Shown here in pieces: positions 6,427 to 62,235 of a stretch of 64,000 nt of DNA (the first letter of the stretch is position 1; each line of letters opens with the position of its first letter). The stretch lies in the sequence record LR990704, one strand, 5' to 3'. A program made the translations under genes and the position numbers. The stretch comes from Escherichia phage vB_Eco_NR1. The notes under the pieces were generated by a model. It saw nothing but the letters and a program-made list of their open reading frames with translations. It did not search any database and was not told the origin of the DNA.

Positions 6427-6451
6427 GGGACCTTTCGGTCCCTTTTTATTT
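6427..6451 (+). terminator. intrinsic terminator after gene 24
   Basis: GGGACC-TTTC-GGTCCC stem-loop followed by TTTTTATTT. Confidence 0.8.
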
Positions 6452-14451: not shown

Positions 14452-15626
14452 TGAGTATGTTGCAACGCCCAGGATATCCAAATCTCAGCGTTAAATTATT
14501 TGATAGCTACGACGCTTGGAGTAATAATAGATTTGTTGAATTAGCTGCTACTATTACCACATTAACTATGCGGGATTCTCTTTATGGCCGAAATGAAGGA
14601 ATGCTGCAGTTTTATGATTCTAAAAATATCCATACAAAAATGGATGGAAATGAAATAATTCAGATTTCTGTAGCTAATGCAAACGATATTAATAATGTTA
14701 AAACACGAATTTATGGATGTAAGCATTTTTCCGTGTCAGTAGATTCAAAGGGTGATAACATCATTGCTATTGAATTGGGAACTATTCATTCTATAGAAAA
14801 TCTTAAATTTGGCAGACCGTTTTTCTCTGATGCAGGTGAATCTATAAAGGAAATGCTTGGTGTCATTTATCAGGATCGCACGTTATTAACTCCAGCAATA
14901 AATGCTATAAATGCTTATGTTCCTGATATTCCATGGACTAGCACATTTGAAAACTATTTGTCGTATGTCAGAGAAGTTGCTCTAGCTGTAGGAAGTGACA
15001 AATTTGTATTTGTGTGGCAAGACATCATGGGAGTTAACATGATGGACTATGATATGATGATAAATCAAGAACCGTATCCAATGATTGTCGGTGAGCCATC
15101 TTTAATAGGTCAATTCATCCAAGAATTAAAATATCCATTAGCATATGATTTCGTTTGGTTGACTAAATCAAATCCTCACAAACGTGACCCAATGAAAAAC
15201 GCTACTATCTATGCTCATTCATTTTTAGATTCTTCATTGCCAATGATTACTACAGGAAAGGGCGAAAACTCTATTGTAGTATCAAGGTCAGGTGCTTATT
15301 CTGAAATGACTTATAGGAATGGATATGAAGAAGCTATTCGTCTTCAAACTATGGCACAATACGATGGCTATGCTAAATGTTCTACTGTCGGTAATTTTAA
15401 CTTGACACCTGGCGTTAAAATTATTTTTAACGATAGTAAAAACCAATTTAAAACAGAATTTTACGTTGATGAAGTCATCCATGAATTATCAAATAATAAT
15501 TCAGTAACTCATCTATATATGTTCACTAATGCAACGAAACTGGAAACAATAGACCCAGTTAAGGTTAAAAATGAATTTAAATCTGATACTACCACTGAAG
15601 AAAGTAGTTCTTCCAATAAGCAATAA
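14451..15626 (+). CDS. 27: baseplate hub protein gp27
   Basis: 391 aa; canonical position. Confidence 0.93.
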
Positions 15627-16104
15627 AGAAGTTTCTATTCCTAAAATGGGTCTTAAACATTATAACATTTTAAAAGATGTTAAAGGTCCTGATGAAAATT
15701 TAAAACTTCTTATTGATTCTATTTGTCCGAATTTATCACCGGCAGAAGTTGATTTCGTTTCTATTCATCTATTGGAATTTAATGGAAAGATTAAATCTCG
15801 TAAAGAAATAGATGGTTATACTTATGACATTAATGATGTTTATGTATGCCAAAGATTGGAATTTCAATACCAAGGAAATACATTTTATTTTAGACCTCCT
15901 GGAAAATTTGAACAATTTTTAACGGTGAGCGATATGTTATCCAAATGCTTGCTTAAGGTCAATGATGAAGTTAAAGAAATTAATTTTCTTGAGATGCCAG
16001 CATTCGTTTTAAAATGGGCAAATGATATTTTTACAACTTTAGCAATTCCTGGCCCTAATGGTCCAATAACCGGAATTGGCAATATTATTGGATTATTTGA
16101 ATGA
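15571..16104 (+). CDS. 28: baseplate hub distal subunit gp28
   Basis: 177 aa ORF overlapping the 3' end of gene 27. Confidence 0.85.
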
Positions 16105-17873
16105 AAAAGCCACAAGAAATGCAAACGATGCGTAGAAAAGTTATTTCAGATAATAAACCAACACAGGAAGCGGCTAAATCCGCTTCTAACACTTTATCTG
16201 GACTTAACGATATATCTACGAAATTGGATGATGCTCAAGCTGCTTCTGAATTAATTGCTCAAACTGTCGAAGAAAAATCGAATGAAATAATTGGAGCAAT
16301 TGACAACGTAGAAAGCGCAGTGAGTGATACTACTGCCGGTTCTGAGTTAATTGCTGAAACTGTCGAAATTGGCAATAATATTAATAAAGAAATCGGTGAA
16401 TCACTCGGGAGCAAATTAGATAAATTAACAAGTTTACTAGAGCAAAAAATTCAGACAGCTGGAATTCAACAGACGGGAACTAGTTTAGCTACGGTTGAAA
16501 GCGCTATTCCTGTTAAAGTTGTTGAGGACGATACAGCTGAATCTGTGGGTCCTTTATTACCGGCTCCTGAAGCAGTTAATAATGATCCTGATGCTGATTT
16601 TTTCCCTACCCCTCAGCCAGTCGAACCTAAACAAGAATCGCCAGAAGAAAAACAGAAAAAAGACGCATTTAACTTAAAATTATCTCAAGCTTTAGATAAA
16701 TTAACAAAGACTGTTGATTTCGGATTTAAGAAATCTATTTCAATTACTGATAAAATATCAAGCATGCTATTTAAGTATACCGTCAGTGCTGCTATTGAAG
16801 CTGCTAAAATGACTGCAATGATATTGGCTGTTGTTGTTGGAATAGATCTGCTGATGGTTCACTTTAAATATTGGTCAGATAAATTTTCGCAGGCTTGGGA
16901 TTTGTTTAGTTCAAACTTTACTAAATTCTCTAGCGAAACCGGAACATGGGGTCCTTTATTACAGAGCATCTTTAGTTCTATTGATGAAATTAAAAAATTC
17001 TGGGAAGAGGGAGATTGGGGCGGTTTGACGGTAGCTATTGTAGAAGGGCTTGGAAAGGTTCTTTATAATTTAGGAGAACTTATTCAGCTTGGAATGGCTA
17101 AATTATCTGCTGCAATTCTTCGAGTCATTCCTGGCATGAAGGATACCGCTGATGAAGTAGAAGGAAGAGCACTAGAAAATTTCCAAAATTCTACTGGAGC
17201 ATCTCTCAATAAAGAAGACCAGGAAAAAGTTGCAAATTATCAAGATAAACGAATGAACGGAGACCTTGGTCCGATAGCAAAAGGATTAGATAAAATTGCT
17301 AATTGGAAAACTCGTGCATCTAACTGGATTCGTGGCGTTGATAATAAAGAAGCACTAACTACCGACGAAGAACGCGCAGCAGAAGAAGAAAAATTAAAGC
17401 AACTTTCACCAGAAGAAAGAAAAAATGCTTTAATGAAGGCTAATGAAGCTCGGGCCGCGATGATTCGTTTTGAAAAATATGCTGATTCAGCTGATATGAG
17501 TAAAGACTCAACGGTTAAATCAGTTGAAGCTGCCTATGAAGACCTTAAAAAACGGATGGATGACCCGGATTTAAATAATTCACCGGCAGTTAAAAAAGAA
17601 CTTGCTGCTAGATTTTCTAAAATTGATGCTACTTATCAAGAGCTCAAGAAAAATCAGCCTAATGCCAAACCTGAAACTTCTGCTAAATCGCCAGAAGCAA
17701 AACAAGTCCAGGTAATAGAAAAGAACAAAGCACAGCAAGCTCCTGTTCAACAAGCATCTCCTTCGATCAATAATACTAATAATGTTGTTAAGAAAAATAC
17801 TGTCGTTCATAATATGACACCCGTAACGAGCACGACTGCTCCTGGTGTATTTGACGCGACTGGAGTTAATTAA
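16101..17873 (+). CDS. 29: tail tube length determinator / baseplate hub gp29
   Basis: 590 aa; canonical position. Confidence 0.93.
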   Translation: MKKPQEMQTMRRKVISDNKPTQEAAKSASNTLSGLNDISTKLDDAQAASELIAQTVEEKSNEIIGAIDNVESAVSDTTAGSELIAETVEIGNNINKEIGESLGSKLDKLTSLLEQKIQTAGIQQTGTSLATVESAIPVKVVEDDTAESVGPLLPAPEAVNNDPDADFFPTPQPVEPKQESPEEKQKKDAFNLKLSQALDKLTKTVDFGFKKSISITDKISSMLFKYTVSAAIEAAKMTAMILAVVVGIDLLMVHFKYWSDKFSQAWDLFSSNFTKFSSETGTWGPLLQSIFSSIDEIKKFWEEGDWGGLTVAIVEGLGKVLYNLGELIQLGMAKLSAAILRVIPGMKDTADEVEGRALENFQNSTGASLNKEDQEKVANYQDKRMNGDLGPIAKGLDKIANWKTRASNWIRGVDNKEALTTDEERAAEEEKLKQLSPEERKNALMKANEARAAMIRFEKYADSADMSKDSTVKSVEAAYEDLKKRMDDPDLNNSPAVKKELAARFSKIDATYQELKKNQPNAKPETSAKSPEAKQVQVIEKNKAQQAPVQQASPSINNTNNVVKKNTVVHNMTPVTSTTAPGVFDATGVN

Positions 17874-19943: not shown

Positions 19944-19975
19944 ATGGGGACCTTTCGGTCCCCATATTTTTATTT
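19944..19975 (+). terminator. intrinsic terminator after gene 54
   Basis: ATGGGGACC-TTTC-GGTCCCCAT stem-loop followed by ATTTTTATTT. Confidence 0.85.
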
Positions 19976-20260
19976 ACGGAATGAAATAAAAGCAGCAACT
20001 GAAGCAACTAAACTGTCTTCAATATAAACCTCAATTTTTACCGGAGCTTCTGACTCAAATTTACCTGTTACTACACCTTGGAAAATACTTTCAGTCTGTT
20101 CTGGCTTTGAAAAATTTTCAGAAGGAAAAATTCCGAACTTTTTATCTGTTCCAAAAATTTTGATAAATTCATCGTAAACTGCTTCATTAAAAGCATTATC
20201 AGCAGGAATAACGCCTTCAACTACAAGTTCTTGACCTAAAAAGCGTAAAGAAGATTTCAT
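19970..20260 (-). CDS. hypothetical protein, 96 aa
   Basis: ORF directly downstream of the repeated early-promoter/leader cassette (20268..20321), GAGGA Shine-Dalgarno. Confidence 0.65.
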   Translation of the reverse strand: MKSSLRFLGQELVVEGVIPADNAFNEAVYDEFIKIFGTDKKFGIFPSENFSKPEQTESIFQGVVTGKFESEAPVKIEVYIEDSLVASVAAFISFRK

Positions 20261-20267
20261 TTTGTGT

Positions 20268-20321
20268 TCCTCATGTTATGTCAGTAAGACTACTATAACA
20301 CAACACGAGGGACTTGTAAAC
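20268..20321 (-). repeat. 54 bp early promoter/5' leader cassette, copy 1
   Basis: 53 of 54 nt identical to 35115..35168; minus strand GTTTACA, 17 nt, TATAGT, then leader ending in GAGGA. Confidence 0.85.
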
Positions 20322-22378
20322 TACATTTTGAACTTTTTAGACATTCCGTTGATGTTAACCAAAGAAGCTAAGATTTGAGAAACTTCATTTTCCTCTTCTT
20401 TTGATTCTTCTACAAGGAATTGATTAAATCCAGCCATTGGACGAACTTCACCAGTTTCCATTAAATGGTCGCCATCATATACTGATTCTTCTAATTGTTC
20501 AGAAGGAGGAACGATTGTACCTTCTATTAGATACTTGTTATAAGCAGTTTCTTTCATAAAGTACGTGCTCACTTTATTAATCTTCAGTAAAATTCCACGC
20601 GGTAGAATAACTTCAGCTTCTGATGGAAATCCTGATAAATGACCTGGAACGATAACTTTGATTCGCTCAGCTCCTTTAATTACCATACCCACGCTAATTT
20701 CAGCATCTTCATTAGCATATGTAGAATGACTACCCATATGCATCAAATCTTCTGCATCAACGGAACCTTCTCCTTCACCAGAAAATACTGCACCGGAATC
20801 ATCTAGAGCCATATAGTTTTTACCATGCTCACCGAAGATATTTGGTTTAAGCGATGTGGATACGAAGTTCTTGAAATAGAACATTTTATTTTCAATGTTA
20901 TGACGCAAAGTTTTAAAGGTAACTTCTTGCCCACGATAAAGAGTAGTTCCTGGAGGAAGAACAGAACCTTTAGCAAATGCAGAATCCAACGTCTCGATGT
21001 GTTTAATAGCTCGTTCCATATATTCTTCACGGGTAGAATCAGGTTTACCTAAAAGGAACGAGTTCATTTCAACATATGAATCTGCACAATAATCTTCAAT
21101 TACATCAGACTCAGCCTGAGTTAATCCTTTTGGAGTTACTTCAGTGCTTGCGTATTCATATGCCTGAGCGGCAGATTCATTAATCAATTTATAAATGCCA
21201 TTCATGACAAATTGAATAATAGCTGTCTTTTCATCTGGTGTAGCTTTAGAACCTTTAACTAAATCATTGATAATTTTCTTAATAACATCAAAGCTATTAG
21301 AAATATTAATGTCAGCAAGATCGCTTAAAATTTTATCAGTTTTATAATCAAAGAATTCTTTATTCTTTAAATATTCTTGAGAACCTTGATATGTTATATC
21401 GCTCTGCAACTTGATAGATGGATCACGTAAACGTGCATGGGCTAATGCAATATGATTTCGGAAACTTTCTAGTTCATAATCGTTAGATTTAAAACGAGAA
21501 GCACTTCTCATACCACCGATAGCTCCTTTGCTAAAGTTTGAACCAATCTGAATAACGCCAGAGTTCATCGGACCTTCTGCTTTATATACCGGAACTTTAG
21601 ATTCAAACTCTTGATATTTCTTAGCAGCGAAGCTATCACCCTGAAGTGAAGCATCAACAGTAGAATATTGAGCTTGTGCTGCTAATCGACGACTAATTTT
21701 AGTTTTCTGAATAACAGCTTGGTCCGTGCGCTTATCATTTTCTAAAGCAATAGAAGCAGCAACAGCAACAGCTTTAGGAACAGCATTACCTGTTTTAACA
21801 TCTACATAAACATCACCAATCTTTGATTCAACTTTTGCGAATAACTCAGTTGAAATAGGAGGTACACCTGGAATGTCTTCTAAATTGGCATTTTTACGGT
21901 AAACCATAATATATGCGTACTTTTTATCATAATCCCAGATTTCCTTTAAAAGAACATATCGACCTGCTCCTTTAGTACGTACTAAACGGTCAGCAATAAC
22001 TTGCATTTGACGAGCTGCGCCATTTGTTTTACTTTTTAGTACGCGGAATAGGCATGCGTCGATTTTATACTGTTTCATTGTTTGAAGAGCAGTATCAAAA
22101 ACAGCATTAATGACGCCAATTGGATTTCCACCCAAGTTTCTAAGCTTGACTAACGATAATTTCTCGTTGACACCTATCATTACGATATGCATCATTTTGT
22201 CGCCTGGCTTAACGTTTTTATTCGTATCACCGCCAGAGGTGTATGTACAAAATCTAAATCCAGGAAGCACGCTTTCTTCACCGGCTTGAATAGCAAAAAT
22301 TTGTGGTATTTTATGCTTAGGATTTAAGTTAACAACCGGCGCCGAAGCGCCGTCAAATAATTCTGTAATAAGTTCCAT
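20321..22378 (-). CDS. Alt-like ADP-ribosyltransferase, second paralogue (685 aa)
   Basis: N-terminus MELITELFD.. almost identical to Alt; C-terminal region has Arg (YRGQ), STS (FVSTSL) and EAE (PSEAEVILPRG) ART motifs. Confidence 0.85.
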   Translation of the reverse strand: MELITELFDGASAPVVNLNPKHKIPQIFAIQAGEESVLPGFRFCTYTSGGDTNKNVKPGDKMMHIVMIGVNEKLSLVKLRNLGGNPIGVINAVFDTALQTMKQYKIDACLFRVLKSKTNGAARQMQVIADRLVRTKGAGRYVLLKEIWDYDKKYAYIMVYRKNANLEDIPGVPPISTELFAKVESKIGDVYVDVKTGNAVPKAVAVAASIALENDKRTDQAVIQKTKISRRLAAQAQYSTVDASLQGDSFAAKKYQEFESKVPVYKAEGPMNSGVIQIGSNFSKGAIGGMRSASRFKSNDYELESFRNHIALAHARLRDPSIKLQSDITYQGSQEYLKNKEFFDYKTDKILSDLADINISNSFDVIKKIINDLVKGSKATPDEKTAIIQFVMNGIYKLINESAAQAYEYASTEVTPKGLTQAESDVIEDYCADSYVEMNSFLLGKPDSTREEYMERAIKHIETLDSAFAKGSVLPPGTTLYRGQEVTFKTLRHNIENKMFYFKNFVSTSLKPNIFGEHGKNYMALDDSGAVFSGEGEGSVDAEDLMHMGSHSTYANEDAEISVGMVIKGAERIKVIVPGHLSGFPSEAEVILPRGILLKINKVSTYFMKETAYNKYLIEGTIVPPSEQLEESVYDGDHLMETGEVRPMAGFNQFLVEESKEEENEVSQILASLVNINGMSKKFKM

Positions 22379-22381
22379 GAT

Positions 22382-24478
22382 TTATCCTTGAACGAACTTG
22401 TAAGGCATGTTTGTAATATCTATGCAAGACGCAATAATTCCAAGAGATGATTCTACTTTCTGTTTAATATTTGATGAAACAAATGATGCAAAGTCAACTC
22501 TGTCTTCTATTTCAATATCACCTGTCATTGCAACTACTTCGCCAGTTTCCATTAAACGGTCACCGTCATAAATTACCGATTCGGTGAGTTCTTCGGTGGT
22601 CATAACTTCAGCTTGAATGAGTTTTGTATTATTAGACGTGGTTCCGTCATTATTAGAAGCATCAGTTATTTTATTAACTTTGACCATCAATCCGCGCGGT
22701 AGAATAACTTCGGCTTCTGTTGCTATTCCGAGACTTCCTGGATATACAACATTAACTTTATGAGCTCCATCAATTGCCCATCCTATTTGAACTTTAACGT
22801 ATTCAGGATTTTCTTTATACGCTCTTATTTCGTTTGGATTAATAGTTATTCCTTCTTCATTTTTATCAACTGTTAATTCATTGCGAGCTTCTGGTTCTAA
22901 AAGACCAATACCAGCATGTGTAATTCCAAAACGTCCAAAAATGATAGGAGTTAAAGAAGTAGATACAAAATTTCTGAAATAGAACACTTTATTTTTAACT
23001 AGTGCTTCGTATATAGGAGCAGTCATACTTTGAGCACGATAAACTGTAATGCCTTCCGGTATACGGTCACCATTTTCAAAAGCTGAATCTAAATTATTTA
23101 TAGCAGATTCAATTTCTTTTTCACTCATTATATCATATCGTTCTGGATTGTAACGACCTAAAAGAAGATTATTGATGTCTGTATATCCTGAACCACAATA
23201 CTCTCTAATGCCGCGCTTTTGTGATGGAGTATATTTAGAACCATCACGGGCAATAGTAATATCAATCATTGGACCTGCACCAATTCCGGAAAAGCTATAA
23301 ATCATTCGTTTGAGGAATTTAGTTTTTGCTGCATTCCAGGCATTTTTAGTTATTTCTCCCCAGACTTCATCTGGTTGCCCTTTACGAGTTTTATTATGTT
23401 TATCAAGCCAATTATCTTTATATTCTTCAAAGAATTTATTAACAGCTGCTGCGTATTTCTCTAAACATTTTATTGAAGTAGTTGGTTCATTTTTGATTGC
23501 GTTAAAAATTACATCTTTAATTTTTTCGGAAACTTCATCAACCTCACTTTTTGAAAAGAATTTATAGTCATAGTGAAGTTCATTCGCAGTTCCTTCGGCA
23601 ATAATTTTTGCTGCCTTAGTTTTAGAAGCTAATGAATTAATTCCAAGCTTCATTTCTTCTGCTTCGGGAATTAAAGGAGCGGTAGCAGGTTTATTGAAAT
23701 TAGCTGCGGTAGATTCATACTTCTGGAATAATTCACTTTCAAATCTAGAAGACTCTAACGATTGACTTTGTGCAATTGCTCTACGGGAAATTTTAACTTT
23801 AACGATTACAGCTTGGTCAGAACGTTTATCGTTTTCTTGTGCAATAGATGCTGCAATTGCCTCATTTTTAGTTACTTGAGCCCCAGTATCTTTATTGATA
23901 TAAACATCACCGACCTTCGATTCAACTTTAGTAAAGAGCTCGGTACTAATTTCCGGAACTCCTGGAATGTCTTCTAGTGATACATTTTTGCGATGTATAA
24001 GAATATATGCATACTTTTTATCATAATCCCAGAGTTCCTTAAGAAGGACGTATCTGCCACCTGAACGACTACGGATAAGTCTATCAGCAATAACTTGAAT
24101 TTGTCGAGCTTGACCAGCGGTTTTAGACTTAAGAATACGGAGCATACAGGCATCAATTTTATACTGACGCATTGTTTGCATTGCAACAGTAAAAACTGAA
24201 TTGATATAATTAATTGGGCTTGGACCAAGACCTTTTAATTTAGCAATTGAACCTTTAGCAGTTAATGTAAAAGGAACAATATGCATCATTTTATCGCCCA
24301 TCTTTAAATCGCGATTAGTATCACCTCCAGATGTATAGGTACATAAACGAAAGCCTGGCTGTTCAATTGCATCATCAACGTGAACTGAAAAAATTTGCGG
24401 TATTTTCTTCTTTGGATTTAAGTTTGTAATCGGAAGAGTAGTATCTTCGTCAAATAATTCTGTAATAAGTTCCATCAT
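22382..24478 (-). CDS. alt: Alt ADP-ribosyltransferase (capsid-packaged, injected)
   Basis: 698 aa; MMELITELFDEDTTLPITNLNPKKKIPQIF.. recognised as T4 Alt; R / STS / EAE motifs; late promoter and SD upstream. Confidence 0.9.
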   Translation of the reverse strand: MMELITELFDEDTTLPITNLNPKKKIPQIFSVHVDDAIEQPGFRLCTYTSGGDTNRDLKMGDKMMHIVPFTLTAKGSIAKLKGLGPSPINYINSVFTVAMQTMRQYKIDACMLRILKSKTAGQARQIQVIADRLIRSRSGGRYVLLKELWDYDKKYAYILIHRKNVSLEDIPGVPEISTELFTKVESKVGDVYINKDTGAQVTKNEAIAASIAQENDKRSDQAVIVKVKISRRAIAQSQSLESSRFESELFQKYESTAANFNKPATAPLIPEAEEMKLGINSLASKTKAAKIIAEGTANELHYDYKFFSKSEVDEVSEKIKDVIFNAIKNEPTTSIKCLEKYAAAVNKFFEEYKDNWLDKHNKTRKGQPDEVWGEITKNAWNAAKTKFLKRMIYSFSGIGAGPMIDITIARDGSKYTPSQKRGIREYCGSGYTDINNLLLGRYNPERYDIMSEKEIESAINNLDSAFENGDRIPEGITVYRAQSMTAPIYEALVKNKVFYFRNFVSTSLTPIIFGRFGITHAGIGLLEPEARNELTVDKNEEGITINPNEIRAYKENPEYVKVQIGWAIDGAHKVNVVYPGSLGIATEAEVILPRGLMVKVNKITDASNNDGTTSNNTKLIQAEVMTTEELTESVIYDGDRLMETGEVVAMTGDIEIEDRVDFASFVSSNIKQKVESSLGIIASCIDITNMPYKFVQG

Positions 24479-24498: not shown

Positions 24499-24506
24499 TA
24501 TTTATA
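24499..24506 (-). promoter_or_regulatory. late promoter (minus strand) for alt
   Basis: Reverse-complement TATAAATA about 20 nt upstream of the alt ATG; fits Alt being a late, capsid-packaged protein. Confidence 0.65.
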
Positions 24507-28455: not shown

Positions 28456-28821
28456 TTAAATATCAAATTCATTAAGAACTACATCAAAGATTGCTTCAAG
28501 ATGCTCAGGTTTGGCTTTGTTACTCAGAATATGACGAATCCAAGTTTTAACTAAAAGTTTACGATTAACACCATTCCAGCAAGGATGAGTCCCTAAATCG
28601 CGTTGACGGAAATCATCATCCAGAGCGATTTTAAAGTTGGAACCTTCCATCGTGATTGAAACCGTGATACCGTTTTCAAATCGCATATAAACGTAGTTAG
28701 GAGTCATATACTGTTCAATTTCGCATACTGAACCATTTTGATGTTTCCAAAGGCAGATGGTATCAATAGAACCTGCAATACCATTAGAAACATATTTACG
28801 TTCAAAGTTGATGTAGTTCAT
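28456..28821 (-). CDS. 30.7: hypothetical protein (T4 30.7 position)
   Basis: 121 aa ORF downstream of an early promoter with dyad symmetry. Confidence 0.7.
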   Translation of the reverse strand: MNYINFERKYVSNGIAGSIDTICLWKHQNGSVCEIEQYMTPNYVYMRFENGITVSITMEGSNFKIALDDDFRQRDLGTHPCWNGVNRKLLVKTWIRHILSNKAKPEHLEAIFDVVLNEFDI

Positions 28822-28858
28822 TTTTATTCTCCGGGATGTTTAATTGCGGTACAGGTAT

Positions 28859-28887
28859 ATAATATCATATCCTGTACCAAAGTAAAC
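28859..28887 (-). promoter_or_regulatory. sigma70-type early promoter upstream of 30.7, -10 bracketed by an 8 bp inverted repeat
   Basis: Minus strand GTTTAC, 17 nt, TATTAT; inverted repeat GGTACAGG / CCTGTACC at 28848..28878. Confidence 0.5.
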
Positions 28888-29032: not shown

Positions 29033-29221
29033 TCAATTCATAAATCCAACCAGTAAAGAAATTATGAACTTGAATTGTAAAGGTGAAATCTGTTCCATAC
29101 CTTCTGCTGTTTCTACTTCAATAATATCACCTTCAACTGCCATTAAGAACCACATAGTTTCATCATATTTACCATTGAAGCATTTAGTTTTAACTGTAGC
29201 GTTCAGATTAATCGTTTTCAT
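29033..29221 (-). CDS. 30.8: hypothetical protein, 62 aa, possibly the N-terminal part of a frameshifted 30.8
   Basis: ORF with SD (AAGGAG) and early promoter upstream; the -1 frame stays open for about 46 more codons to 28890. Confidence 0.55.
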   Translation of the reverse strand: MKTINLNATVKTKCFNGKYDETMWFLMAVEGDIIEVETAEGMEQISPLQFKFIISLLVGFMN

Positions 29222-29294
29222 TTTATTCTCCTTTGTTTGTGTAAGATAATACTATCACAAAGGAGCTATACTGTAAACAACTTTATGCAATCTT

Positions 29295-31878: not shown

Positions 31879-32111
31879 AGTACGCCATACACCCTTTGTG
31901 CTTCAACTAATCCATCAAAATCCAGTTTAAGATGCGATATTTGATCGCCATCACCTGGATTCACAATTACTAATACTGAACGAGGAGTTTCGGTAATAAC
32001 ACGAACCGATGTTTCAGGAAATCGTTCAGAAACCTTATTTACCAATTCCTGCGCAAATAGTTTAACTTTTTCTTGGAATTCTTTAACAGTAATTGGTTTT
32101 TCACTTAGCAT
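31875..32111 (-). CDS. hypothetical protein, 78 aa (cd.x cluster)
   Basis: ORF downstream of an early promoter with dyad symmetry. Confidence 0.6.
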   Translation of the reverse strand: MLSEKPITVKEFQEKVKLFAQELVNKVSERFPETSVRVITETPRSVLVIVNPGDGDQISHLKLDFDGLVEAQRVYGVL

Positions 32112-32139
32112 TTTGTTTTCCTCATTTGTTTTGGTAGAG

Positions 32140-32171
32140 CTATAATATCACAACTCTACCATAAAGTAAAC
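32140..32171 (-). promoter_or_regulatory. sigma70-type early promoter upstream of the 78 aa cd.x ORF, -10 bracketed by a 7 bp inverted repeat
   Basis: Minus strand GTTTAC .. TATTAT; inverted repeat GGTAGAG / CTCTACC at about 32133..32160. Confidence 0.5.
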
Positions 32172-34263: not shown

Positions 34264-34613
34264 TTAGAAAGGTCCTGGATGTCTTCTGCGAACTTGTTGA
34301 AGGAATTGTTGATTTGTTTTTCAACCAATCCTGGCTTACGAGCCACCACATCCGCCTTCTTTGCGTCTTTGCGCAGCTTTTCATTTTCACGCTCAATAGC
34401 AGCAATTGCCTCACGATTTTTAGTATTCATCGCATCAATATAATTATACTGAATTCGCAAATTATTTAATGCTAAAGCGTTTTCATTGGCTGTTTTTGTA
34501 ATTTCAGTAACTGATGTTTCTAATCTTTCTACCTTATTTTTTAAAATAATAGATGTTCCGCCAAATGCTATTACAAGTAATAGCAATCCAGCTGTTGTAT
34601 TACTTAATTGCAT
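34260..34613 (-). CDS. inner-membrane spanin (T4 pseT.3-like)
   Basis: 117 aa; N-terminal transmembrane helix followed by coiled-coil; ATGA coupling to the o-spanin. Confidence 0.7.
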   Translation of the reverse strand: MQLSNTTAGLLLLVIAFGGTSIILKNKVERLETSVTEITKTANENALALNNLRIQYNYIDAMNTKNREAIAAIERENEKLRKDAKKADVVARKPGLVEKQINNSFNKFAEDIQDLSK

Positions 34614-35107
34614 AAAGTTTTAATAACCTCTATAATATCGTCTTGAGAAAGACCGTTAATTAAAATATGATGTTCAGCCGGAGATTTAGAAATTTTAAAG
34701 CATGCCTCAACATCTTCTGCCATATCCGATGCACTACGATTTGGATTACTAATTCCAAGACGATGCTTTCCAGTCAAAGGATTAACGATGATATAGCATT
34801 TGCAGCTATTGATATGAACATTAGGCTGAGTCTGATTAATGAACACTTCGCAATCATACTTAGCGAGTTGATTTTCTAAAAAGACTTTCATCTCTTCAAC
34901 CGCATCAGGAAGCATATCACGGGCTTGCTCAAGACGACGATTTCGATATTCTTTAATGGTCGTTTTCCGCTTGACTTGCTTAGCTAAATCTTTCTTAAGA
35001 TCGGTGATATATCCAACTCGACGATTTCCTTTGAATACAGAAATCCCATCTGTAGTATCACCGTATGCTTCAACGACCATTTCAGTAGTAATAAGTTGTA
35101 AATCCAT
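34604..35107 (-). CDS. alc: Alc, inhibitor of host transcription elongation
   Basis: 167 aa from the second Met; preceded by the repeated early promoter/leader cassette. Confidence 0.85.
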   Translation of the reverse strand: MDLQLITTEMVVEAYGDTTDGISVFKGNRRVGYITDLKKDLAKQVKRKTTIKEYRNRRLEQARDMLPDAVEEMKVFLENQLAKYDCEVFINQTQPNVHINSCKCYIIVNPLTGKHRLGISNPNRSASDMAEDVEACFKISKSPAEHHILINGLSQDDIIEVIKTLCN

Positions 35108-35114
35108 CATAAAG

Positions 35115-35168
35115 TCCTCATGTTATGTCAGTAAGACTACTGTAACACAACACGAGGGACTTGTAAAC
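35115..35168 (-). repeat. 54 bp early promoter/5' leader cassette, copy 2 (upstream of alc)
   Basis: 53 of 54 nt identical to 20268..20321; starts 3 nt after the rnlA stop. Confidence 0.85.
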
Positions 35169-35171
35169 AGC

Positions 35172-36759
<1,588 letters not shown>

Positions 36760-43739: not shown

Positions 43740-43982
43740 TTAAACAGACTTTTTCACAATTTTCCAATCGGCTTTAAACTGCTCGACGTCAGAATGGTAA
43801 ATCCAAAATCCTGCGCTTTCACCGTCTTCATAAAGCGGACACCCATCACATTCATCTTCCCATCCCATGCCACGTAAAAGGTGTTCAGCTTTTTCAACAA
43901 GTTCAGAATCTTTACCGATGATATTAAAATACCATTTACCTCTAACTTCCGAATCTTTGATGCTCTGACGTTGTAATCTCAT
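43740..43982 (-). CDS. hypothetical protein, about 80 aa (frd.2-like)
   Basis: ATG with AAGGAG SD at 43982; the provided ORF extends to an upstream TTG at 44039. Confidence 0.6.
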   Translation of the reverse strand: MRLQRQSIKDSEVRGKWYFNIIGKDSELVEKAEHLLRGMGWEDECDGCPLYEDGESAGFWIYHSDVEQFKADWKIVKKSV

Positions 43983-44009
43983 TTTATTCTCCTTAGTTGA
44001 TAAGGCTAT

Positions 44010-44037
44010 AGTATCATTACCATAGCCCGTTGTAAAC
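44010..44037 (-). promoter_or_regulatory. sigma70-type early promoter upstream of the frd.2-like ORF, with 6 bp inverted repeat
   Basis: Minus strand GTTTACA, 17 nt, TACTAT; inverted repeat GGCTAT / ATAGCC at about 44004..44027. Confidence 0.45.
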
Positions 44038-44726: not shown

Positions 44727-44957
44727 TTATTGTTCAATCAGTCCCATGTAAAATTCTGCGTCTTCAGAATCCATGCCATCACAATATTCATTAGCCATAA
44801 AGCGGGTAAGGTCTTCAAGAGGACCTTCAATGACAATAGAAAAATTGCAATAATTGGGATCATCGTGAATACTTGTGATACTAAGTTCAGGATAACGATT
44901 ACGAATAATTTCTTCGATATATTCAAAATCAACGATGTCAATATCAACTTTAGCCAT
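44727..44957 (-). CDS. hypothetical acidic protein, 76 aa
   Basis: Internal ATG with GAGGA SD ([11 protein letters not shown]..); the provided ORF extends upstream across the gene 32 terminator. Confidence 0.55.
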
Positions 44958-45051
44958 ATTATTTTCCTCTTTAATCATCAGCAGTATTGCCGATAGTTGT
45001 ATAGTACCATAGAAGGACAAGGATGTAAACCATTTTGTGAAAAAATTTTTG

Positions 45052-61502: not shown

Positions 61503-62138
61503 TCACAGTTCAGATGCTACAGTGATTACTGCTTCAATGTTTTCTACCGAGCGTTTAATGTCAAGATACACATTACCGTTTTTAGCGATTTTACATGACA
61601 TTCCGATGTCAGTAAATTTCTGAATATGATGTTCCATCATTTTGTATCCAAAAATTCGCATGTTTCCATTGTTGTTAATTTCAAAATTACGAATTCCGTG
61701 AGTGCGTTTTTCTAAAATGGCAAGATAATTACTACGATAAGTTTCAACCTTTTTAAGAACAAATCCATTTTCATCTAAAAGTTTTAACATGAGGTCTTTA
61801 TCTTCTTCCATATCGGAAGTAATCTCGCGAGCTTTACGAGTTGCTCGTTTTTTCAGTAGTTCCGGAGCATTTTCCTGTGCATATAAAGTTGCTGCATTTG
61901 AAATAATATCCTGAGCTTCACCAGTAATGATTAATCCATCACCAGATTTCTCCACCAGGCCTTTTTTAATCAATACCCCAATATTACTATTAACTACTGC
62001 GTTACCTAAATCTGGATGCACCTCACGAACTTCTGCAGCTGTAATGAAATCTTTCTTAGCAATAGTAATTAAAATCGCAGCAGTTTTTTCATTCAGAACA
62101 TCGTTAGAAGCTTTGATGATGTAAGTTACTTTAGACAT
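61503..62138 (-). CDS. motA: middle transcription activator MotA
   Basis: 211 aa; MSKVTYIIKASNDVLNEKTAAIL.. Confidence 0.95.
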   Translation of the reverse strand: MSKVTYIIKASNDVLNEKTAAILITIAKKDFITAAEVREVHPDLGNAVVNSNIGVLIKKGLVEKSGDGLIITGEAQDIISNAATLYAQENAPELLKKRATRKAREITSDMEEDKDLMLKLLDENGFVLKKVETYRSNYLAILEKRTHGIRNFEINNNGNMRIFGYKMMEHHIQKFTDIGMSCKIAKNGNVYLDIKRSVENIEAVITVASEL

Positions 62139-62235
62139 TTTCTAATCTCCGTAATTCTGTATCAGTAGTTGATAGTTGTATAGTACCACAGTATGCTTTG
62201 GTTGTAAACCGTTTTGTGAAAAAAAAAAAATTTTG

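Follow-up and report, generated by a model that had tools for sequence, protein, structure and literature searches.

The window analyzed here is a 64,000-nucleotide stretch of Escherichia phage vB_Eco_NR1 (sequence record LR990704). Around positions 35115 to 35168, this DNA is 98 to 99% identical to that of Tequatrovirus (T4-like) phages, and its minus strand encodes denA, rnlA, alc, and the spanins. A 54-bp cassette lies between rnlA and alc (copy 2) and is identical at 53 of 54 positions to a second stretch at 20268 to 20321 (copy 1), which lies between an alt paralogue and alt.-3; both copies, and all of the genes concerned, are on the minus strand (Table 1). A sequence-only reading of this DNA had described copy 2 as a near-identical repeat of copy 1 that starts 3 nt after the rnlA stop codon and ends 4 nt before the alc start codon, and the copy, its positions, and both distances proved to be exact. 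The rnlA stop codon TAA occupies 35174 to 35172, with the cassette beginning 3 nt further on at 35168, and the cassette ends at 35115, 4 nt short of the first alc ATG (35110 to 35108). A second in-frame ATG at 35107 to 35105 is the start annotated for alc in T4. Copy 1 starts on the last base of the stop codon TAG (20323 to 20321) of the 685-aa Alt paralogue and ends 7 nt short of the ATG (20260) of the 96-aa ORF alt.-3. Full-length alt is present twice at 20321 to 24478 on the minus strand, as tandem paralogues of 698 and 685 aa; at the position of the paralogue, T4 carries the decayed alt.-1/alt.-2 fragments after alt.

Searching the window with the 55-nt cassette at up to 3 mismatches returned just the two sites and no further copy, with a chance expectation of 0 in 100 shuffles. 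When the 55-mer was searched for at ≥90% identity among phage records, it was found at 997 places in 499 records, i.e., nearly always twice per genome. The repeat occupies the same two loci, rnlA-alc and alt-alt.-3, in about 500 Tequatrovirus genomes; IMG/VR held just a handful of Tequatrovirus contigs.

Table 1. Coordinates of the genes, promoter elements, and predicted hairpin arms at the two cassette loci
Feature	Position in window	Strand	Basis or remark
alc, 168 aa, inhibitor of host transcription	34604..35110	-	Pfam ALC, 7.9e-92; annotations
rnlA, RNA ligase 1, gene upstream of copy 2	35172..36296	-	Start 36296 placed from the 374-aa T4 protein
alt.-3, 96 aa, Pfam DUF5498	19970..20260	-	The "96 aa ORF near alt" of the sequence-only reading
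Second alt paralogue, 685 aa, upstream of copy 1	20321..22378	-	ORF
Late-promoter motif TATAAATA, 21 nt before the alt ATG	24499..24506	-	Motif
Cassette copy 2	35115..35168	-	Between rnlA and alc; ~500 Tequatrovirus records have the cassette at the same locus
-35 hexamer TTTACA (early type GTTTACA), copy 2	35162..35167	-	Promoter scan; invariant in 10-genus alignment
Extended -10, TGT TACAGT, copy 2	35139..35147	-	Promoter scan
Predicted transcription start A, 7 nt past the -10, copy 2	35132	-	Promoter geometry
5' arm AAGUCCCUCGUGUUGUGUUACAGUA (promoter spacer plus -10), copy 2	35138..35162	-	Folds and covariation; missing from the cassette's own predicted transcript
Hairpin loop GUCU, just upstream of predicted start	35134..35137	-	Fold
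3' arm UACUGACAUAACAUGAGGACUU (leader), copy 2	35112..35133	-	Fold; runs 3 nt past the repeat end
Shine-Dalgarno GAGG of alc, within the 3' arm	35116..35119	-	Accessibility prediction
Cassette copy 1	20268..20321	-	Between alt paralogue and alt.-3
-35 hexamer, copy 1	20320-20315	-	Scan and geometry
Extended -10, copy 1	20300-20292	-	Scan and geometry
Predicted transcription start A, copy 1	20285	-	Scan and geometry
GAGG, copy 1	20272-20269	-	Scan and geometry
Hairpin 5' arm, copy 1	20291..20313	-	Fold
Hairpin 3' arm with Shine-Dalgarno, copy 1	20266..20286	-	Fold and accessibility

A promoter scan of copy 2 found TTTACA-17-TG-T-TACAGT at 35167 to 35139, which follows the -35/spacer/TGn/-10 arrangement of T4-type early (sigma-70) promoters, and copy 1 reads TTTACA-17-TGTTATAGT at 20320 to 20292. 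Both copies have GTTTACA at the -35 and TG at -15/-14 within the 17-bp spacer; the -10 is TATAGT in copy 1 and in both T4 copies and TACAGT in copy 2. The predicted starts, A35132 and A20285, lie ~22 to 25 nt ahead of the AUG, and GAGG is located 5 nt before the first alc AUG. Both copies match the published T4 early-promoter pattern (UP/-35/TGn/-10 class), with which they share GTTTACA, the 17-bp spacer, TGn, a TAnnnT-type -10, and a position directly before early-class genes (PMC2988021), and they also match the PST/T4 PeSL consensus TTTACW-N17-TAYWAT (PMC4122927). They differ from T4 early promoters in having coding DNA upstream of the -35, namely, the end of the rnlA or alt coding sequence, where the A-runs AAAAATTATAAAAAATTTAT and CTAAAAAGTTCAAAATG form partial A-tracts, candidates at most for the A-rich UP element expected around -40 to -60. 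The same early-promoter elements recur in 12 further lineages, and the record of one related genome annotates the cassette as a "predicted early promoter." Judged by these elements, the cassette is a T4-type early (sigma-70) promoter plus leader, with its start position predicted from promoter geometry.

The sequence-only reading had also called the cassette an early promoter with a leader, and the promoter elements and the GAGG-containing leader bear this out. What it overlooked, however, is that the cassette is an imperfect inverted repeat in which the promoter half is complementary to the leader half. RNA reading through copy 2 is predicted to form a 22- to 25-bp hairpin in which AAGUCCCUCGUGUUGUGUUACAGUA pairs with UACUGACAUAACAUGAGGACUU across the loop GUCU. 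The predicted fold of the read-through RNA has an energy of -28.6 kcal/mol at copy 2 (z score of -5.75 versus dinucleotide shuffles) and of -23.0 kcal/mol at copy 1 (z score of -3.9), these energies being thermodynamic predictions that ignore both co-transcriptional folding and ribosomes on the upstream gene. Since the predicted start follows closely on the loop, the cassette's own transcript would have the 3' arm only and be unstructured, and the transcript from the predicted start is indeed essentially unfolded in the predictions (-0.8 kcal/mol). In Tequatrovirus, the sense strand folds 6 to 8 kcal/mol better than the antisense strand because of 3 to 4 G.U pairs. A search of Rfam across 34800 to 35500 returned no match at an E value of ≤1.

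The predicted hairpin markedly changes the accessibility of the ribosome-binding site. When read-through RNA was folded in a 370-nt context, the Shine-Dalgarno sequence had a predicted probability of being unpaired of 0.001 at both loci, in contrast with 0.58 for alc in its own transcript. The predicted cost of opening the alc Shine-Dalgarno sequence was 10.3 kcal/mol in the read-through RNA relative to 1.1 kcal/mol in its own transcript, and the corresponding values for alt.-3 were 11.0 and 3.1 kcal/mol. In RNA initiated upstream, the Shine-Dalgarno sequence is thus placed inside a stable helix by prediction and by the covariation described below. Both leaders (35105 to 35121 and 20258 to 20274, minus strand) also contain an AUG, within CAUGAGGA, that opens a frame of 4 to 5 codons whose UGA overlaps the gene start (AUGA); no Shine-Dalgarno sequence serves this mini-ORF (AUG AGG ... 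UGA), which is probably coincidental. RegB cleavage requires GGAG, and cleavage by RegB at the cassette was ruled out because the Tequatrovirus Shine-Dalgarno sequence is GAGG rather than GGAG.

The region upstream of alc was compared in 15 other lineages. Nine genera (Gelderlandvirus, Karamvirus, Jiaodavirus, Moonvirus, Dhakavirus, Bragavirus, Roskildevirus, Kanagawavirus, and Winklervirus) have the same layout built from different stem sequences, examples of the paired arms being AUCUCCGUUUAGUU/AACUAAACGGAGAU, AUCCUCAUCAG/CUGAUGAGGAU, and AACCUCUCAUUUUUA/UGAAAAUGAGAGGUU. This common alc-type layout runs from the stop codon through TTTACA, the 5' arm, TGn plus the -10, and the start to a 3' arm that includes the Shine-Dalgarno sequence, and the rnlA-alc spacer in these nine genera measures 57 to 72 bp. 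Gualtarvirus reaches the same outcome with another geometry, its 5' arm being formed by the -10 together with the nucleotides that follow. In 10 alc-type genera, transcription is predicted to start immediately past the loop, on the opening bases of the 3' arm, and in Gualtarvirus it is predicted to start past the 5' arm. Relative to these predicted starts, the 5' arm is always wholly upstream, and transcripts of the internal promoter would lack the 5' strand of the helix; the 3' arm always spans about -26 to -5 from the AUG, Shine-Dalgarno sequence included.

Several comparisons indicated that the complementarity of the two arms is maintained. In an alignment-free swap test, each spacer found its best partner in its own leader in 10 of 10 hairpin genera, with energies of -15 to -24 kcal/mol for the cognate pairings, whereas the off-diagonal ones averaged -9.8 kcal/mol. 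A per-position pair table showed 2 to 4 canonical pair types at each of spacer positions 1 to 10. In a covariance-model alignment, 87.4% of cells paired, relative to 70.2 ± 1.5% in shuffles (0/500) and 37 to 45% when the partner was slid; the covariation score was 0.424, relative to 0.159 for shuffled alignments (0/500), and both sides had changed in 12 of 17 pairs. Because the structure itself guided this alignment, some of whose rows are antisense or weak, its counts lean toward structure, although the slid and shuffled controls were far lower. RNAalifold detected no structure in a plain MAFFT alignment because the 3' arms are misaligned in it. In all, compensatory change has maintained pairing upstream of alc in 11 genera. 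Since compensatory changes amid such sequence divergence would otherwise be unexpected, they point to selection on pairing, and pairing, not primary sequence, is by these comparisons what is conserved upstream of alc across genera.

The size of the predicted switch, i.e., the opening cost in read-through RNA minus that in the cassette's own transcript, was 7 to 11.5 kcal/mol in 12 of 13 alc-type cassettes, the exception being that of Jiaodavirus at 2.7 kcal/mol. It was -1.1 to +1.9 kcal/mol in the alt.-3-type cassettes of other genera and at Mosigvirus alc. Among the lineages compared, the alc hairpin was absent from Mosigvirus and from the distant Ac42, phiAS4, and LPCS28, so the hairpin is dispensable. 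In Gaprivervirus VR25, a 77-aa ORF has been inserted between rnlA and alc (290 to 604 of the stretch compared). This ORF is named "inhibitor of host transcription" in the record and has two hairpins before it, one terminator-like and one of its own that covers the Shine-Dalgarno sequence (GGUUCCAUCA/UGAUGAGGACC); VR25 alc follows only 10 bp after it.

Given that pairing rather than primary sequence is conserved, the cassette probably serves to make translation depend on promoter origin, beyond driving two genes alike. On balance, we favor a model in which translation of alc and alt.-3 would be restricted to transcripts from their own early promoter. According to this model, the early promoter is built into a hairpin whose 5' arm is the spacer plus the -10 and whose 3' arm is the leader with its Shine-Dalgarno sequence. 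RNA from this promoter would carry the 3' arm only, leaving the ribosome-binding site open, such that alc and alt.-3 would be translated right after infection. RNA from upstream, which would come from rnlA and earlier genes in the case of alc and from the late alt message in the case of alt.-3, would carry both arms, fold at -23 to -29 kcal/mol, and bury the Shine-Dalgarno sequence, leaving the downstream gene untranslated. Translation would in this way be tied to promoter origin, and synthesis of Alc and Alt.-3 would be limited to the immediate-early window. The model is grounded in the repeat, the promoter elements, the predicted structure, the covariation, and the difference in accessibility, from which we infer the start site, read-through transcription, and the translation block.

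The arrangement of the neighboring genes is compatible with read-through RNA entering both cassettes. A terminator scan of the minus strand found no terminator-like site between rnlA and alc or between the late motif/alt and alt.-3. Upstream of alt lie a terminator and the late motif TATAAATA, and from this motif to copy 1 no terminator-like site was found, so late alt RNA should run into alt.-3; late read-through RNA reaching copy 1 thus probably originates at the motif. In T4 omics data, alc and alt.-3 both fall in the class of early RNA and early protein, while rnlA is classed as early RNA and late protein and alt as middle RNA and late protein (PMC9697503); these classes fit the model, although they do not discriminate between explanations. 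The sequence-only reading had proposed that alc and alt.-3 are co-regulated, and this is plausible because both are early in RNA and protein in T4 and both have early-promoter elements. A G+C-rich hairpin, GGGGACC-GAAA-GGTCCCC, at 19944 to 19965 between the convergent genes alt.-3 and 54 is probably a bidirectional terminator, and a similar hairpin, GGGACCTTTCGGTCCC, is found at 6427 to 6442.

Three other explanations of the hairpin were weighed against the evidence. Published PeSLs combine early promoters with stem-loops, mostly located in the -35/-10 spacer or over the -10. One RB49 stem-loop decreased lacZ expression as much as rrnB T1 did in a transcriptional fusion, a result pointing to attenuation (PMC2839356). 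The hairpin at alc and alt.-3 could likewise be a PeSL-type terminator or attenuator, or an RNA-end element (an exonuclease barrier or RNase III site), for rnlA or alt RNA, with the promoter restarting transcription and the pairing of the Shine-Dalgarno sequence being incidental. Such a role would suit the long T4-type stem (22 to 25 bp with a 4-nt loop), the UUUAUGAU that follows the stem at alc, and the hairpins in the window with a -35 at 44036 and 28886, which span the -10 and leave the Shine-Dalgarno sequence untouched. Nevertheless, we regard it as unlikely: a U-tract follows the stem only at alc, where it is weak, and neither at alt.-3 nor in other genera; the 12- to 21-nt loops of most genera are unlike those of intrinsic terminators; and the terminator scan does not flag the cassette. 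Moreover, a terminator needs neither a Shine-Dalgarno sequence in its 3' arm nor a 5' arm upstream of the start, yet both are conserved.

Translational coupling via hairpin opening is an established mechanism, and in most genera the stem begins to pair 9 to 14 nt after the upstream stop codon, the pairs at its base being those that hold the Shine-Dalgarno sequence. Ribosomes terminating on rnlA (or alt) could therefore partly open these pairs, melting the stem base and freeing the Shine-Dalgarno sequence, which would result in coupling instead of silencing. That this is what the hairpin does seems improbable to us, however, since the distance from stop codon to stem is not conserved (~23 nt in Roskildevirus and ~30 nt in Gualtarvirus), a ribosome on the stop codon would open one pair at most at 12 to 14 nt, and the spacing is no more than the -35 hexamer requires. 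T4 protein kinetics also differ between the upstream genes, which are late, and the downstream genes, which are early. It is just as doubtful that the cassette is only a duplicated strong early promoter and leader whose self-complementarity is functionless or acts at the DNA level, as an operator-like dyad, cruciform, or recombination site. The copies did arise by duplication, the two loci appear to have exchanged cassettes (that of Tequatrovirus alt.-3 is alc-type, and Mosigvirus alc has a promoter whose 5' half is alt.-3-like), and PeSLs have been proposed as recombination sites (PMC2839356, PMC4122927). Still, the complementarity is kept by compensatory changes across genera, and the G.U pairs that favor sense over antisense RNA in Tequatrovirus argue against a DNA dyad. 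The presence of exactly two copies at fixed loci in almost all of 499 genomes also argues against active mobility, and the one third copy observed, in phage G28, belongs to a plain 351-bp tandem duplication rather than to a cassette-cassette exchange. Restriction of translation to RNA from the early promoter thus remains the reading we prefer.

Two known systems resemble the cassette in part. Like PeSLs (Arbiol et al. 2010, PMC2839356; Comeau et al. 2014, PMC4122927), it has a sigma-70-type early promoter, a stem-loop in or over the promoter, and a Shine-Dalgarno sequence and start codon on its 3' side; like them, it occurs as similar copies repeated within a genome, with signs of exchange between loci. 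The cassette also agrees with the definition of a PeSL in that a stable stem-loop overlaps the promoter, its 5' arm lying in the -35/-10 spacer and the -10. In contrast, the PeSL stem-loop has been taken for a terminator or attenuator and its cassette for a site of recombination, and the 2010 paper (PMC2839356) uses neither "sequester" nor "translation," whereas the 3' arm described here is a leader with a Shine-Dalgarno sequence and only a weak U-tract (at alc). The cassette also occupies two fixed loci beside conserved genes rather than sites among shuffled ORFans, and no ORF shuffling was seen around the two loci; the alt paralogue beside copy 1, decayed in T4, is variable.

The second system consists of the hairpins with internal late promoters that hide the ribosome-binding sites of e, soc, 49, I-TevI/II/III, segB, and Aeh1 mobE (PMC3014915, PMC2988022). 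There, too, a promoter lies within the DNA of the 5' strand of a Shine-Dalgarno helix, and in the known cases the long RNA is silent while the internal RNA is translated. These cases, however, "are all late genes" with late (gp55) promoters (PMC2988022), whereas neither a late promoter nor a late gene was found at alc or alt.-3: the internal promoter is an early sigma-70 promoter, the genes are immediate-early, and the predicted timing is reversed, with activity early and silence on middle or late read-through RNA. Since both promoter and genes are early, the cassette would be a variant of the late-hairpin class rather than a member of it as described. It likewise departs from ordinary T4 early promoters, in which the spacer is normally unconstrained, in that its spacer is constrained by pairing with the leader. 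In the searchable literature, which leaves older T4 work out of reach and a prior description possible, we found no hairpin or mapped promoter at alc and no hiding of a Shine-Dalgarno sequence by an early promoter.

The two loci appear to differ in their history. In other genera, alt.-3 has an early promoter directly after the alt stop codon, with only a small hairpin inside the spacer and no predicted switch; outside Tequatrovirus, alt.-3 thus manages without a Shine-Dalgarno-hiding hairpin. The outer pairs AAGU/ACUU of Tequatrovirus are present at the alc locus only, and the T4 cassettes are predicted to fold at -30.5 kcal/mol at alc in comparison with -23.7 kcal/mol at alt.-3. In Mosigvirus, the alc leader would pair perfectly with a T4-type 5' arm (-20.6 kcal/mol), and the promoter half is 77 to 78% identical to alt.-3-type promoters. 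The sequences on which any history of exchange between the loci rests are short and no more than suggestive. In the simplest reading, the hairpin type would be ancestral at alc, and the alc cassette would have been copied in front of alt.-3 in an ancestor of Tequatrovirus, replacing an ordinary early promoter there. Cassette replacement between the loci appears to have occurred in both Tequatrovirus and Mosigvirus.

Within the Tequatrovirus sample, the 3' arm is invariant, and changes in the main stem keep or improve pairing; a haplotype specific to alt.-3 (GTTCCTTATG) regains pairing with the local GGAAC. Gene conversion as the process keeping the copies alike was unsupported, given that variants were mostly locus specific in the nine genomes in which both copies were read, derived bases common to both copies being found only in G28 and partly in T2. 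Purifying selection or a recent origin is enough to account for the likeness of the copies. Phage vB_EcoM-G28 (NC_054916) contains a perfect 351-bp tandem duplication at 15500 to 16202 that runs from the end of rnlA through the cassette into the first ~145 bp of alc, yielding a third cassette copy and a truncated alc ORF. This duplication could be real or an assembly artifact; it was rejected as evidence of cassette-mediated recombination, since it simply spans the cassette.

Pairing between the promoter spacer and the downstream Shine-Dalgarno sequence is not confined to the two copies. Among the early-promoter-like cassettes of the window, 5 of 10 showed such pairing with a probability of >0.9, namely, those before alc, alt.-3, frd.3, a 30.8-like ORF, and a cd.2-like ORF, in comparison with 2 of 51 control start sites. 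We tentatively raise the possibility that early-promoter hairpins hiding the Shine-Dalgarno sequence could be a general, unnamed device of T4-like phages, a translational insulator whereby the expression class of a gene would be set by the promoter of the RNA. If so, synthesis of Alc, Alt.-3, Frd.3, and 30.8 would end at the shut-off of their own promoters despite middle or late read-through RNA, which would explain the early-only protein profile of genes inside long middle or late transcription units. The PeSL stem-loop would then be at least partly a translational element, not a terminator alone, and so have a second, testable function. T4 is the reference system for timed gene expression, and its early-to-middle switch is usually put down to promoter shut-off, RegB cleavage, and MotA/AsiA; silencing of immediate-early cistrons on read-through RNA would, if true, add a simple cis-acting layer to this timing. 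Because one arm lies in the spacer and can be mutated with the -35 and -10 intact, the device should be easy to probe and is a potential synthetic part ("translate only from this promoter").

The window also contains a second pair of similar cassettes, at 44992 to 45045 and 62171 to 62224 (minus strand), which are 83% identical over 54 nt. The former precedes frd.3 (start at 44957), and the latter precedes motA (start at 62138); the probability of pairing between the Shine-Dalgarno sequence and the spacer is 0.97 in the frd.3 copy and 0.2 in the motA copy. At 43982 to 44036 and 28821 to 28886 (minus strand), early-promoter-like sequences carry strong hairpins over the -10 and start that leave the Shine-Dalgarno sequence free, and these resemble PeSLs without sequestration. 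Two more pairing cassettes are located at 29221 to 29277 and 32111 to 32170 (minus strand). One of these, which pairs as CUCCUUUGUG/CACAAACAAAGGAG at -20.4 kcal/mol, precedes a truncated, 62-aa 30.8-like ORF and was also picked up, in phage T2 as well as in this window, by the covariance model derived from alc; the other precedes a DUF7320 (cd.2-like) ORF.
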